Shown here: one piece after another, positions 55,556 to 58,774 of the stretch
How the letters are laid out: each line of letters begins with the position of its first letter
Numbering within the stretch: position 1 is the stretch's first letter
DNA from: Escherichia phage RCIP0363
Direction: 5' to 3' (one strand)
Sequence record: PV464739.1
DNA length: 64,000 bases
Notes under the pieces: generated by a model
What the model was told of the DNA's origin: nothing
Seen by the model: the letters and a program-made list of their open reading frames with translations, nothing else
Database searches by the model: none
Program-made: the position numbers and the translations under genes

Positions 55556-55570
55556 CCAATTTGCACTATA

Positions 55571-55608
55571 AAATGGCCCTAGAACACATTTTCTCCACTT
55601 CTAGGGCC
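55571..55608. terminator. 12-bp perfect inverted repeat ATGGCCCTAGAA/TTCTAGGGCCAT with 14-nt loop
   Basis: Read directly; sits between convergent genes. No T-run, so it may be a protein-binding palindrome rather than a terminator. Confidence 0.4.
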
Positions 55609-55669
55609 ATCGGTAATACGACGGGGAAGGCTGCAGCCATAAACGCGTTAGAAAGTGTATTATTATAAG

Positions 55670-55933
55670 TCATCTTTTAGTCACTTTACGTAACAATTTA
55701 CGACCTTCCGCCGTCCAGTCGAACGACTCCACCAGCAGATTTGCACTATAACCTAAGACGATGCGCCCTTTCTCGTTATCGACCCGCCAACAAGTCTCGA
55801 ATAGCATTCGATTTGCACTATTAACTATCGCCGCAACGCGCGTTGGGTAAGCGCAATTTGCACTATGATCATAAAGGGATAAGGTGCGACCACTTCCGAT
55901 GGACAACGTAGCGATGAGAATAAGCGTATTCAT
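55670..55933 (-). CDS. hypothetical protein (CpG-rich island)
   Basis: ORF carrying three antisense motif copies, each translated in-frame as S-A-N. Confidence 0.3.
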   Translation of the reverse strand: MNTLILIATLSIGSGRTLSLYDHSANCAYPTRVAAIVNSANRMLFETCWRVDNEKGRIVLGYSANLLVESFDWTAEGRKLLRKVTKR

Positions 55934-55983
55934 AAGCCACCAATTTGCACTATGAAAAGCGACCCCGAAGGGCCGCCATTCGA

Positions 55984-56610
55984 TTAGATGATCTGGAAGG
56001 TGTAGGACTTGTTGCCGAACTCGAAGTTCAAGCGTCCAGCTTCTTTAAGCTTCATGCGGAAGCGAATGTGCTTGCTATCCGGTAAGCCCAGCGCGGCGAA
56101 CGCTACGCGGACCGATTTGAACTCGCCTACACCCTCGACCATAACGGCGTTACGGGTGAGACGCTTTTGCGCCACTTCCTTGTTATCCCAACTTTTTGCA
56201 ATACCTTCGCTATTCGAACGGCGATGGGAAGGAGTTCCATTTTGCACTACGCAATTTGCACTATCGTTTAAACCGCTCTTAACGAAGGCTTCATACTCTT
56301 CGTCGGTCATCGCGTCGAGTTCTTCCTGCGTCGGCTCGGCCTTTTTAACGACCGCACGCGCCTTATGCGTTTTTACATCGCTGGACACTTCCTCGCGCGA
56401 CTTCGCGTCGGGGATGGGCGATTCGTTGGACGGCTCATCGAGTGCGTTTAAGGATTCGATTAACGCTATTACGCGAGTCTCGGCGGTCCGGCGGTCCGCA
56501 AATTTTTTAATCGGCTTCGAACCGGAATTTGCATTATAAAATGCAACGAGGTCGGCGGTCTTAGTTGCGATAACGTCGCCGCTAGTCGAGAAACGATTTA
56601 AGCTAACCAT
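55984..56610 (-). CDS. hypothetical protein (CpG-rich island)
   Basis: 208-aa ORF with balanced composition; the antisense ORF is junk-like. Confidence 0.4.
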   Translation of the reverse strand: MVSLNRFSTSGDVIATKTADLVAFYNANSGSKPIKKFADRRTAETRVIALIESLNALDEPSNESPIPDAKSREEVSSDVKTHKARAVVKKAEPTQEELDAMTDEEYEAFVKSGLNDSANCVVQNGTPSHRRSNSEGIAKSWDNKEVAQKRLTRNAVMVEGVGEFKSVRVAFAALGLPDSKHIRFRMKLKEAGRLNFEFGNKSYTFQII

Positions 56611-56690
56611 AATGAACTCCTATTTGTTAGGGCGCTAGGCGCGAAAGAATTTTATTAAAGCGCCGCGCACGACGCTCTAAAAATCCTCTC

Positions 56691-56975
56691 TTACGCTTCG
56701 ACGAGGGAGAAGGTCTCAAATTCTTCTTCGCCCATAACGAGTAAGATGTTACCGATTTCGACCGCTTCGAAGAAGTATCCGTTAACGTTTACTTCGAAGG
56801 CTTCGCGGTCCGATTCCGGTAGCGCCGCGTAAAGTTTAAAAGCCTCGGCGACCGTTACCCCACCCGCCTCGATAGTTTGGTCTACGTTCGCGGCGTAGAC
56901 TTCGGATAAAATTTGTTTTACGCCGTAGTTCTCGACGATAGCGTTACGAATAGAAGAAACGTTAAGAATAGCCAT
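56691..56975 (-). CDS. small acidic protein, paralogue 1 of island family
   Basis: MAILNVSSIRNA...ANVDQTIE...VNVNGYFFEAVEIGN parallels the 57787 product (MITLSAIRSA...SNVDATIE...VTINGFVYTITEIGG). SD aggag and own promoter copy. Confidence 0.55.
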   Translation of the reverse strand: MAILNVSSIRNAIVENYGVKQILSEVYAANVDQTIEAGGVTVAEAFKLYAALPESDREAFEVNVNGYFFEAVEIGNILLVMGEEEFETFSLVEA

Positions 56976-57043
56976 TTTAAACTCCTAGTTGGGAGAGGCG
57001 TTAACGACCTATTCGTTAACTCATCCCGTCCCGATATGAGTAC

Positions 57044-57071
57044 ATTATAATATAGTGTAGAAAAAAGTAAA
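57044..57071 (-). promoter_or_regulatory. island promoter copy 1 (TTTACT-16-TATAAT, minus strand)
   Basis: Shares GTGCTTTACT...TACACT...TATAAT and a conserved leader TATATCGxGAxGG with the two plus-strand copies. Confidence 0.45.
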
Positions 57072-57115
57072 GCACTTTTTCGATAAAAATGAGATAAATT
57101 ATTTTATCTTTTTTC

Positions 57116-57143
57116 TTTACTTCTTCGTACACTCGCGTATACT
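57116..57143 (+). promoter_or_regulatory. island promoter copy 2 (TTTACT-16-TATACT)
   Basis: Followed by conserved leader GTTTATATCGAGACGGG. Confidence 0.45.
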
Positions 57144-57199
57144 TGTTTATATCGAGACGGGCGATGGCCCTTCCTTCTACTAGCATCGGGAGTTTTATT

Positions 57200-57502
57200 A
57201 TGACCACTTTAATCTCTTCTATCATTACTTACGACGAAGACCGTTTAACCGTTCGTTCTCTTATCGCCGCCGTTAACGCGGAACTAGAATCCACCATCAT
57301 TAAGGTCCGCGCGGTCGCTTTCGTCGGCCTTTCCTTCGACGATATTAAGTACGCCGAACGTAGCGCCATCCGCTTCGCGAAGACCGACGACGAAGCCGTT
57401 ACCCTTATCGAGACGGTTACGCCGTGCGGCGAAGCGTTAATTATCGTCGAGTATATCGACGTAGAAGGCGACAAGGCTTATAAATATTTTATCGCAAAAT
57501 AA
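57200..57502 (+). CDS. small acidic protein, paralogue 2 of island family
   Basis: MTTLISSIITYDED...CGEALIIVEYIDVEG; SD gggag 7 nt before ATG 57200. Confidence 0.5.
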   Translation: MTTLISSIITYDEDRLTVRSLIAAVNAELESTIIKVRAVAFVGLSFDDIKYAERSAIRFAKTDDEAVTLIETVTPCGEALIIVEYIDVEGDKAYKYFIAK

Positions 57503-57519
57503 CGAAAAAGGAGTAGAAG

Positions 57520-57672
57520 ATGAAAACTATCGAGTTAAGCGCGAAGGCTAATAAGTTCGGACGTATTTTATTTTACGTCTTCGAAGATAAGAAGCATCTA
57601 TACGAATTTAATAAAGCGGAAGACGCCGCCGCTTGGGTCGTCGAACTTGGGAGACGCGCTTTAAATAAATAG
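57520..57672 (+). CDS. small hypothetical protein (50 aa)
   Basis: SD aaaaaggag before ATG 57520. Confidence 0.35.
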   Translation: MKTIELSAKANKFGRILFYVFEDKKHLYEFNKAEDAAAWVVELGRRALNK

Positions 57673-57691
57673 AAAAATAACGAAAAAGTGC

Positions 57692-57720
57692 TTTACTTAT
57701 TCGTACACTAAGACTATAAT
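57692..57720 (+). promoter_or_regulatory. island promoter copy 3 (TTTACT-17-TATAAT)
   Basis: AAAAAGTGCTTTACTTATTCGTACACTAAGACTATAAT followed by GTTTTATATCGAGAGGG and a stem-loop containing GGTAGCGA/TCGCTACC. Confidence 0.45.
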
Positions 57721-57786
57721 GTTTTATATCGAGAGGGATGAGGTAGCGAATAGGTCGCTACCCTCCCGACTAACTAGGAGAATATT

Positions 57787-58077
57787 ATGATCACTTTATC
57801 CGCTATCCGTTCCGCTCGCGTCGAAACTTCCGAAAACTCTAACGTATTTGGCGAAACCTTAGAGAGCGTTTATCTCTCTAACGTCGACGCAACTATCGAG
57901 TCTATTTATGAGCCGATCAACTTCCTCGACCTTTACAAGTATCGCGATGAGGACATCGTATCGTCGCGCGTAACGATCAACGGCTTCGTCTATACGATTA
58001 CCGAAATCGGCGGCGAATATATCGCGGTCCCGCAACTCGGCGGCGAAGTAACTTATTTTAAAATCGTCTCCTTATAA
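57787..58077 (+). CDS. small acidic protein, paralogue 3 of island family
   Basis: See paralogue 1; SD aggag and a rho-independent terminator downstream. Confidence 0.55.
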   Translation: MITLSAIRSARVETSENSNVFGETLESVYLSNVDATIESIYEPINFLDLYKYRDEDIVSSRVTINGFVYTITEIGGEYIAVPQLGGEVTYFKIVSL

Positions 58078-58097
58078 TCCCCTTCCGTTACTAATAG

Positions 58098-58119
58098 GCC
58101 GCGCTTAGTCGCGGCTTTT
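58098..58119 (+). terminator. rho-independent terminator GCCGCG-CTTAGT-CGCGGC-TTTT
   Basis: Perfect 6-bp GC stem plus T-run directly after the 57787 gene. Confidence 0.6.
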
Positions 58120-58439
58120 CTTCGTCCCTATCTCGGTGCGCTCCTACGCGAAAACTCCTTTATCCTTCCCTTCGTCGGCGCATAATCTTCGTCGAGATGC
58201 GCCTTAGTTCGCATAACGGGTATTACGTTAAATGGAGAACATCGCGTAAGTCCTTGTTTTATATAGACACCTATATCGGACCGTTAGGGAGGGTCGCGTA
58301 AGTCGTTGTTTTATAAAGGCTCAAAACTTTCCCTTCGTTCCGAACTAAAACGAGAAATATGCGGACCCTTCGCCCGAAAATAGTACGCATGCGAAATTAC
58401 CGACATCTAGAATAATCCCTCACGATATTATCCTACACG

Positions 58440-58705
58440 CAATCATTCGCTTTCGAATCATTATGCTTCATATTATTATGCTTCGAATCATTCGCTTTCT
58501 AATTGTAACGCTGGAAACTGTAACGGCGATTGATTATTGCGTTCGTGTGGTTTTTAGGGCATGGGTCTTTTGGTGCGTTTTGGTACTTGATGAAATTTGC
58601 AGTACACTAATCAGAATACGACACATTTGGACCACTAACTTTTCAAAGAAAAAGTCCTAGACAGTACCGTACTATTTTGTACCCACAGTAAATTTGCAGT
58701 ACACT
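58440..58705. repeat. direct-repeat region: AATCATTCGCTTTC x2, ATTATGCTTC x2, AAATTTGCAGTACACT x2
   Basis: AAATTTGCAGTACACT at 58593-58608 and 58690-58705; the shorter repeats lie in 58440-58520. Confidence 0.7.
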
Positions 58706-58774
58706 ACTGCGCGGCAGGCAAAAGAAAGGGCCGCCACAGCGACCCACGATTCACGGTTAAATCAGCAGCACCCA

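Follow-up and report, generated by a model that had tools for sequence, protein, structure and literature searches.

A conserved CA/TG-depleted array of small-gene cassettes within the direct terminal repeat of Escherichia phage RCIP0363, a candidate pre-early region

The window analyzed here is a stretch of 64,000 nucleotides (nt) from Escherichia phage RCIP0363 (sequence record PV464739.1), and its subject is a 3.2-kb locus, in which a first-pass annotation made from the sequence alone had described a CpG-rich island with three promoter-plus-gene cassettes. The locus matches 28 phage records at 94–97% identity, all of which are Wifcevirus, the top match being AV128; Wifcevirus consists of myoviruses of E. 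coli and Shigella with a genome of ~68 kb. The records of Mansfield, WFC, and Ro157lw all start at window position 54,722. The direct terminal repeat (DTR) of Mansfield was predicted using PhageTerm as positions 1–3673 (3673 bp), the end of which maps to window position ~58,573 (PMC6753283), and WFC contains the DTR as two identical 3784-bp copies, the right end of which maps to ~58,651. In window coordinates, the DTR extends from 54,722 to ~58,573–58,651, and it is present as a single collapsed copy (54,722..58,651) in a permuted window. The locus is the outer two-thirds of the DTR of the phage, and the right edge of the island, at 58,511–58,530, is located 60–140 bp from the right physical end of the genome. 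Since the locus is a terminal repeat that collapsed in a circularly permuted assembly, it is not positioned at an early/late boundary, as had been assumed in the first-pass annotation.

The island encodes three small proteins, P1 (56,691..56,975, minus strand), P2 (57,200..57,502, plus strand), and P3 (57,787..58,077, plus strand), which consist of 94, 100, and 96 amino acids (aa), respectively. Their isoelectric points (pI) are 4.05, 4.55, and 4.23, and their net charges are −12, −6, and −8, respectively, in agreement with their earlier description as small and acidic; the known DNA-mimic anti-restriction proteins Ocr and ArdA are more extreme in acidity. P1 and P3 are paralogues with 35% identity over 80 aa (E = 3e-6). 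However, P2, which had been regarded as a third clear paralogue, has no detectable similarity to them; as a distant relative, it was rejected by BLASTP, which gave E = 2.1 or no match, and by hhalign, which gave a probability of 0.2%. P2 and P3 are real genes under purifying selection, where the ratios of nonsynonymous to synonymous polymorphism (pN/pS) are 0.24 and 0.30, respectively.

Each of the three genes has its own copy of one promoter and leader, at 57,054–57,072 (minus strand), 57,115–57,133 (plus strand), and 57,691–57,709 (plus strand), so that the earlier finding of three copies, one of them inverted, was reproduced; 0.01 copies are expected by chance, and the single further match in the 64 kb, at 1577–1595, has three mismatches. 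The P1 promoter (57,044..57,071, minus strand) consists of TTTACT, a 16-nt spacer, and TATAAT, the P2 promoter (57,116..57,143, plus strand) consists of TTTACT, a 16-nt spacer, and TATACT, and the P3 promoter (57,692..57,720, plus strand) consists of TTTACT, a 17-nt spacer, and TATAAT, where 9–10 of the 12 positions match the sigma-70 consensus. The downstream element TATATCG-GA-GG is common to the three cassettes, and a Shine-Dalgarno sequence of AGGAG or GGGAG is found ahead of each cassette open reading frame (ORF). In addition, two identical copies of AAATTTGCAGTACACTA (repeat family D13, plus strand) flank the right end of the DTR at 58,593–58,609 and 58,690–58,706, and GTACACTA occurs both in these copies and in the spacers of the cassette promoters, a possible sign of a shared DNA-binding regulator.

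The P1 leader (56,976..57,040, minus strand) contains a 5′ hairpin (UUAACG...CGUUAA) and an AGGAG Shine-Dalgarno sequence, and its folding energy is −18.3 kcal/mol (z = −1.9). The stems of the P1 and P3 leader hairpins differ by compensatory changes, UUAACG/CGUUAA versus GUAGCG/CGCUAC. When the leaders were folded singly, a stable 5′ hairpin was obtained in five of seven (z of −1.8 to −3.6); three of the four leaders folded from two distantly related contigs, L019 and L020, which are described below, gave hairpins of 8–11 bp with differing sequence (z of −1.8 to −3.6), and the folding of the P2 leader and of one L020 leader was no different from that of shuffled sequences. No shared consensus structure was obtained by applying RNAalifold to the leaders, because the hairpins differ in size and register, and Rfam gave no match in the region. 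The module of CTTTACTT...TATAAT, hairpin, and Shine-Dalgarno sequence is also found in L019 and L020 ahead of small ORFs of other families, which are mostly acidic (pI of 4.05–4.37, one 5.75). The search for the cassette in related phages, which the first-pass annotation had proposed, located the module in the relatives, L019, and L020 with variable gene content.

Downstream of P3, an intrinsic-terminator-like hairpin (58,096..58,117, plus strand), which is the same element annotated as a terminator in Mansfield and WFC, is followed by the non-coding tail of the island (58,118..58,530). This tail is still CA/TG-poor, and its small ORFs have a pN/pS above 1. It contains direct repeats at 58,242/58,294 (25 nt) and at 58,425/58,470 (43 nt), of which the former appear as two copies of TCGCGTAAGTC-TTGTTTTATA (58,242–58,318) and the latter as two copies of a 43-nt unit (58,425–58,512), together with leader-like remnants, where parts of the tail resemble the cassette leader (GTTTTATATAGA...TATCGGA...AGGGAGGG). 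The tail repeats are possibly decayed cassettes.

The gene content of the array varies between relatives cassette by cassette. P1 is missing in Ro157lw and ECML-117, both of which carry an extra 69-aa ORF after P3, and it is replaced in WFC, WFH, Bas98, and Bas101 by an unrelated 104-aa acidic protein (annotated coding sequence of 315 nt), which is homologous to a protein of L019 (40% identity, E = 3e-15). A 50-aa basic ORF (57,520..57,672, plus strand) is carried on an insertion/deletion cassette with 20-nt direct repeats at 57,491–57,510 and 57,669–57,688 (family D11), and it is found in 3 of the 14 genomes compared, which are this window, AV128, and ECO71P1. With the two further cassette protein families contributed by L019 and L020, the array comprises at least five unrelated small-protein families, four of which are acidic. 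The cassette ORFs encode 86–105 aa, and all but one are acidic (pI of 4.05–4.55, the exception being 5.75).

The composition of the DNA changes sharply across this array. The observed/expected ratio of CpG is 1.7–2.3 across 56,001–58,500 in 500-nt bins and 0.7–1.45 in all other bins of the window but one; in 2.5-kb windows, the maximum for the island is 2.07, compared to a background of 1.10 ± 0.08 with a maximum of 1.31. The CpG-rich island of the first-pass annotation therefore exists and the ratio is not uniform, but the enrichment is approximately 2-fold instead of several-fold, and the island is narrower, extending roughly over 56,270–58,530 instead of 55,560–58,750. The reported abundance of TTCGAA/TCGCG-type words is also confirmed, where TTCGAA occurs six times in the island and CGA/TCG reaches 2.66 times the expectation. 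The sole other bin with high CpG, at 3001–3500 (observed/expected 1.92–2.02, GC content 0.34, TpA-rich), is not depleted in CA/TG (0.85) and represents a different kind of anomaly.

Although CpG is enriched, the primary signal is a depletion of CA/TG, instead of the CpG excess regarded earlier as the core anomaly. For symmetrised dinucleotides, the ratio rho* of CA/TG is 0.39 over the whole island (56,270..58,530, both strands) and 0.24–0.35 in its core, whereas that in the rest of the window is 1.18 ± 0.11 with a minimum of 0.84. The values for the island and the rest of the window are 2.03 and 1.09 for CG and 1.14 and 0.66 for TA, respectively, and the other dinucleotides are unchanged. The core (56,382–58,510) contains 87 CA+TG, compared to 263 expected, and 234 CG. 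CAG/CTG does not occur on either strand over these 2130 nt, where 59 are expected; outside the core, the gaps between CAG/CTG average 31 nt, the next-longest gap is 270 nt, and the observed/expected ratio in the remainder of the phage is 1.17. ACA/TGT is present at 0.25 of the expectation in the island, and CTAG is ~10-fold commoner than in the remaining phage sequence. The transition from normal to depleted composition is located at ~56,270–56,380, within the gene of a conserved 208-aa protein and just past the last copy of a repeat, ATTTGCACTAT, and the left part of the same DTR has normal composition. The excess of CpG and TpA is probably a by-product of the depletion, since CA/TG can be removed at the least cost through synonymous transitions. 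No report of CA/TG avoidance was found in the searchable literature.

For genes of either strand, CA and TG each reach 0.21–0.35 of the expectation whether they span codon positions 1-2, 2-3, or 3-1, and the non-coding tail of ~450 bp is as depleted as the coding part. His, Gln, Cys, Trp, and Met, the codons of which contain CA or TG, and Pro are used 2–5-fold less, and the CTG and CAG codons are not used at all in the island genes. The same degree of depletion in every codon phase, on either strand, and outside the genes places the constraint at the level of the DNA itself.

The depletion is conserved. All 13 of the 13 Wifcevirus relatives compared contain 72–90 CA+TG in the island, compared to 225–264 expected, and 1–7 CAG/CTG, the total absence of which is particular to this isolate. 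More distant lineages were reached through the family of the neighboring 208-aa protein. The member of this family in L019, a contig of 72.5 kb, is 65% identical, and that in L020, a contig of 67.8 kb, is 52% identical. Both contigs contain an island of 1.9 kb with a rho of CA/TG of 0.21–0.32 (L019) and 0.26–0.45 (L020) and CG of 1.8–2.4, which spans the N-terminal half of the conserved gene, carries CTTTACTT...TATAAT cassettes, and adjoins an array of ATTTGCACTAT. The island is absent from a Pbunavirus-like genome (GC content 55%), the family member of which is 41% identical. In the three lineages, every trinucleotide containing CA/TG is depleted (0.12–0.72), where only CAT/ATG exceeds 0.5; therefore, it is the dinucleotide as such that is avoided. 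A target of CAG/CTG in particular, for example the CTG template site of the E. coli primase DnaG, was considered and rejected, as the relatives carry 1–7 copies and other CA/TG trinucleotides are even more depleted in L019.

The depletion is also actively maintained. Among 14 aligned genomes, 279 biallelic substitutions were found in the island, and, with variants polarised by the minor allele, recombination ignored, and a small sample, 53 variants created CA/TG and 51 removed it, compared to a neutral expectation of 95/20 (p = 8e-14). When only singletons were considered, the corresponding numbers were 29 and 15, compared to 34/7, and the gains and losses in both flanks of the island fit the neutral expectation. 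New CA/TG arise near the expected rate and yet fail to persist, which is the pattern of continuing purifying selection. These results indicate that the avoidance of CA/TG is maintained by selection and is not a relic of horizontal transfer.

On its inner side, the island is bounded by an array of eight exact ATTTGCACTAT sites (55,059..56,264, plus strand), all in a single orientation; no exact site is found elsewhere in the 64 kb outside the DTR, and degenerate copies are located at 54,964, 56,238, and 56,525. Several of the sites fall in coding sequence, on its antisense strand. In L019 and L020, the arrays adjoin the island, as noted above, and copies are also found in the contigs L021 (one exact) and L022 (four). 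ATTTGCACTAT is a candidate for a terminase or packaging site, an injection-stop signal, or an operator, and a sigma-54 reading was rejected by eye on the basis of spacing. The array overlaps the conserved genes of the inner part of the DTR. The 208-aa protein (55,984..56,610, minus strand; PHROG 4730), only the N-terminal half of which lies inside the island, is 97–100% conserved among the 120 best matches, on Wifcevirus-sized contigs, and belongs to a large uncharacterised two-domain phage family of 829 clusters at 50% identity. Its confident AlphaFold2 (AF2) model, with a predicted local distance difference test score (pLDDT) of 85, consists of an N-terminal helical domain and a C-terminal helix/strand domain, and the latter gave only weak, non-significant matches to solved winged-helix-like structures or small DNA-binding domains. 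The same protein domain has CA/TG-poor coding DNA in the Wifcevirus clade and coding DNA of ordinary composition in the Pbunavirus-like phage.

An 87-aa basic conserved protein (55,670..55,933, minus strand) has a pN/pS of 0.05 and an L019 orthologue of 58% identity (E = 2e-36), and its gene is associated with four copies of ATTTGCACTAT, three inside the coding sequence and one 10 bp beyond the start. A 157-aa protein (55,082..55,555, plus strand; PHROG 4783), annotated in Mansfield as the terminase small subunit on the basis of HHpred, is likewise strongly conserved, with a pN/pS of 0.02. Just upstream of this small-terminase-like gene, overlapping near-consensus sigma-70 promoters, TTGAAC-17-TATAAT and TTGAAT-17-TATAAT, are located at 55,001–55,047, and a promoter of this early type is unexpected for a packaging gene. 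At the left boundary of the DTR, a 14-nt unit, ATACGGATGATACG, occurs three times at 54,653–54,843, where two overlapping tandem copies lie just to the left of 54,722 and one just inside, in AT-rich surroundings with a GC content of 0.37.

We propose that the cassettes form a pre-early array for host takeover or anti-defence within the DTR, where the DNA of the array is selected against CA/TG, and we give this proposal about an even chance of being correct. By analogy with the first-step-transfer region of T5 and the host-takeover module of SPO1, the array would serve as a pre-early leading region, beginning 60–140 bp from the right end of the virion DNA and limited on the inner side by the ATTTGCACTAT array. 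Each cassette, with its near-identical host-type promoter (CTTTACTT, ~17 bp, TATAAT), 5′ hairpin leader, strong ribosome-binding site, and small ORF, would be transcribed at once by the host RNA polymerase, and the small acidic proteins might neutralise the defences of the host or take control of it before exposure of the remaining genome. The avoidance of CA/TG would then be an escape from something that acts on DNA in the cell during this first period, of which restriction enzymes would be a part but not the main one; a host defence, an anti-host activity of the phage itself, and DNA mechanics are possibilities for the selecting agent. The avoidance of spurious promoters was also considered and rejected, as the region contains more promoter-like sites than its shuffled sequences. 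The location in the DTR, the anatomy and coding status of the cassettes, the composition and its conservation, the signature of selection, and the distribution of restriction sites are shown by the sequence data, whereas the timing of entry and expression, the function of the proteins, and the nature of the selecting agent are inferred. The anti-defence or host-takeover role suggested in the first-pass annotation is plausible and is strengthened by the DTR site, the individual promoters, the turnover of cassettes, and the restriction resistance described next, although it is not demonstrated.

The Wifceviruses of BASEL resist every restriction-modification system tested but EcoP1_I, among them EcoKI, EcoCFT_I, EcoRI, EcoRV, and EcoCFT_II, by a protection mechanism that is not known (PMC11990801). 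For these phages, 36–38 EcoRI sites and 92–93 EcoCFT_II sites were counted, and they are very sensitive to EcoP1_I with about as many sites as for EcoCFT_II (PMC11990801). The published site counts for EcoRI, EcoRV, and AGACC were reproduced in Bas98 and Bas99. Among all 5-mers, CACAG alone reproduces the counts in the published table, 92 for Bas98 and 93 for Bas99, and is therefore most likely the recognition site of EcoCFT_II, a type III system. In the DTR, CACAG occurs zero times in Bas99, once in Bas98, and once in this window, where ~5 copies are expected, whereas 5–7 AGACC sites of EcoP1_I are found in both orientations in the same three sequences; the DTR of this window contains no EcoRI, EcoRV, or EcoAI-type site. 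This distribution fits, and would offer a simple explanation for, the sensitivity to EcoP1_I and the resistance to EcoCFT_II: in such a model, only the sites in the first-entering DNA would matter, because its products would then protect the remaining genome. In Autographiviridae, motifs in the first-injected region decide the sensitivity to restriction (PMC12455610), and the restriction resistance of T5 has been ascribed to functions that its early-injected region provides (PMC8594841). As a side observation, almost all 2.1-kb windows of the whole stretch contain fewer palindromic 4- and 6-mers than shuffles with the same dinucleotide content (mean z of −1.4 to −1.8). Such a genome-wide under-representation of palindromes is a classic signature of selection by type II restriction. 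Generic avoidance of restriction sites was rejected as the sole cause of the composition, being insufficient in view of the k-mer and palindrome results and the composition of T5, T7, and SPO1 given below.

Several points weigh against the proposal. The CACAG motif was deduced from site counts, not from a published motif, and it is the only statistically meaningful site deficit in the DTR; finding no EcoRI or EcoRV site in 3.8 kb is not significant by itself (~1 and 0.2–0.35 expected, respectively), and one EcoKI site is located inside the island at 57,679. The k-mer vocabulary of the island is only 10–17% below that of other windows, palindromic 6-mers are not fewer in absolute terms, and the avoidance of palindromes is genome-wide, with a z of −4.3 for the island, compared to a background mean of −1.8 and minimum of −3.7. 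The minimum rho of CA/TG in 1-kb windows of the leading regions of T5, T7, and SPO1 is 0.80–0.91; CA/TG is not depleted in the T5 repeat (0.93, compared to 0.99 for the rest), is ordinary in the SPO1 repeat (1.08), and is normal in the leading kilobase of T7 (1.00). First entry of the island is deduced from position, that is, from its proximity to the right end and from the inner repeat array, and the P2 and P3 promoters point to the nearby end, so that only P1 could aid transcription-driven entry of the DNA. As for the proteins, homologues of P1/P3 and of P2 were found only on contigs of ≤~72 kb, the longest being Wifcevirus-sized, among 5.8 billion proteins searched, where the P2 homologues are 78–94% identical and all on contigs of ≤~69 kb. 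P1–P3 have no match in Pfam, PHROG, or NCBIfam, in accordance with the first-pass statement that no product belongs to a nameable family; P1–P3 and the 50-aa ORF have no PHROG family at E ≤ 0.01, P1–P3 gave no Pfam match above noise to the Ocr or ArdA families, and searches of Pfam, PHROG, NCBIfam, and PDB sequences provided no hint of function for any of the proteins encoded in the locus. For P3, the AF2 model reached a pLDDT of 52, where only the C-terminal beta-sheet is moderately confident, and is too poor for a fold search.

A stronger form of the proposal is that the first ~2.1 kb acting in the cell is nearly free of CA/TG in order to evade a dinucleotide-specific activity, either a host defence or a weapon of the phage, directed at pre-early intracellular DNA. 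We consider this form unlikely; if it were true, it would imply discrimination of self from non-self by the absence of a dinucleotide and a novel DNA-targeting activity in E. coli or the phage.

One alternative is self-immunity, in which a phage activity damages or blocks the host DNA at CA/TG sites while only this segment is intracellular, so that the segment would have to be free of such sites. The depleted zone matches a plausible first-transfer segment that would reach from the physical end up to the ATTTGCACTAT array, the depletion is at the level of the dinucleotide and not of a site in three lineages, and generic restriction avoidance is too weak as an explanation. CAG/CTG is highly abundant in E. 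coli DNA, its ratio in the remainder of the phage is the 1.17 given above, and T5 similarly degrades the host DNA while its own first-step DNA survives. The one-step growth of relatives is also very fast (PMC7048862; PMC11990801). However, Pfam, PHROG, and NCBIfam revealed no recognisable nuclease or DNA-modifying enzyme in the repeat, the acidic proteins are nearly without His and Cys, the remaining genome with its normal CA/TG would require separate protection, and the scheme depends on a two-step injection that is assumed by analogy. We regard self-immunity as quite unlikely.

Horizontal acquisition, for which the first-pass annotation had argued from the composition, would mean that the island was received recently from a donor with an unusual signature and that its composition is a passive relic. 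The dinucleotide signature sharply unlike the rest of the genome, the abundance of CTAG, and the orphan status of P1–P3, which have no relatives beyond Wifcevirus-sized contigs, are consistent with such an origin. The island is nevertheless present with the same synteny in all 13 relatives and in the two lineages at 65% and 52% protein identity, instead of patchily, its left edge falls not at a gene border but within the 208-aa gene, which is under strong purifying selection and belongs to the family of 829 clusters, and unrelated cassette families all bear the signature. The gains and losses of CA/TG are balanced, in contrast to the 95:20 expected under amelioration, and we know of no natural genome with a rho* of CA/TG near 0.3, so that a recent transfer is very unlikely.

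Another alternative is a local mutational bias, in which a mutation or repair process, for example one associated with transcription or with DNA-end processing, turns CA/TG into CG or TA without selection. The changes that compensate for the depletion are transitions throughout (TG to CG or TA), which keep the purine/pyrimidine pattern, and the segment is near a DNA end and probably very heavily transcribed; selection under coding constraint would, however, give an equal pattern of transitions. Moreover, the singleton gains of CA/TG are near neutral (29 versus 34) and the deficit is found only in older variants, which is the pattern of selection, while the left part of the DTR retains normal composition and both strands are equally depleted, including the non-coding part past the terminator-like hairpin. 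A mutational origin is accordingly highly improbable. Selection on RNA or translation, by avoidance in the early mRNAs of NTG starts, of ACA and similar cleavage sites of toxin RNases, or of certain host tRNAs, finds some support in the canonical start codons, all of which end in TG, in the unused CTG and CAG codons, and in the low ACA/TGT, but is scarcely credible, as CA and TG are equally depleted in three phases, in sense and antisense, and in the 450-bp tail, and UG and CA are not jointly targeted by any one agent at the RNA level.

If the avoidance of CA/TG marks first-entering DNA, it would provide a purely computational handle on the leading regions of other phages, and an agent with dinucleotide-level specificity would point to new biology. 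The locus is a testable candidate for the protection of Wifcevirus against nearly all the tested restriction systems, and the cassette array is a source of candidate anti-defence or host-takeover proteins.

Among known systems, the locus resembles the pre-early region of T5 in the long direct terminal repeat, where the island lies inside a DTR of 3673–3784 bp, in the small genes driven by host promoters, and in the resistance to restriction despite many sites. The T5 repeat is also compositionally distinct, with a CpG rho of 1.35 compared to 0.79 for the rest. In T5 (AY543070), CGC/GCG is 2.32 in 1–10,219 and 0.72 in 10,300–30,000, AGA/TCT and CTC/GAG are halved, and the change occurs at the end of the repeat. 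First-entering DNA may thus be compositionally distinct in general, where the signature of T5 differs from that of Wifcevirus. The segments also differ in size, ~2.2 kb in Wifcevirus compared to ~10 kb in T5, and the two-step injection is known of T5 but is assumed by analogy for Wifcevirus; the DTR proteins include no homologue of T5 A1, A2, or dmp, and searches of Pfam, PHROG, and NCBIfam assigned none of them to a family with a known function. SPO1 similarly carries many small genes in its terminal redundancy, with annotated functions of host shut-off and takeover. Each gene of this module, as Stewart and co-workers are said to have described in 1998, has its own strong early host-type promoter and ribosome-binding site, and the three cassettes likewise combine small terminal-redundancy genes with a strong promoter and ribosome-binding site each. 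However, P1–P3 belong to no PHROG family, and therefore to no SPO1 family, so that homology to gp37–gp60 is lacking, and SPO1 has another host and another sigma factor.

In T7 and other Autographiviridae, the first-entering DNA has a cluster of strong E. coli promoters, downstream of which a small acidic protein with anti-restriction activity is encoded (gene 0.3, Ocr), which is similar to the present arrangement. In contrast, P1–P3 have no similarity to Ocr, with a net charge of only −6 to −12, and in Wifcevirus every gene is served by a separate promoter, usually with a hairpin, and one of the cassettes lies in the opposite orientation. The leading regions of conjugative plasmids offer a likeness in concept, in which the first DNA to enter carries anti-defence genes; Samuel and co-workers reportedly described in 2024 variable small anti-defence genes with dedicated promoters in these regions. 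They have no genes in common with the Wifcevirus locus, we know of no dinucleotide-avoidance signature for them, and, unlike phages, conjugative plasmids enter as single-stranded DNA and use single-strand promoters. What the Wifcevirus locus adds to the leading-region theme of T5, SPO1, and T7 is an unusually strong and actively maintained avoidance of a dinucleotide.

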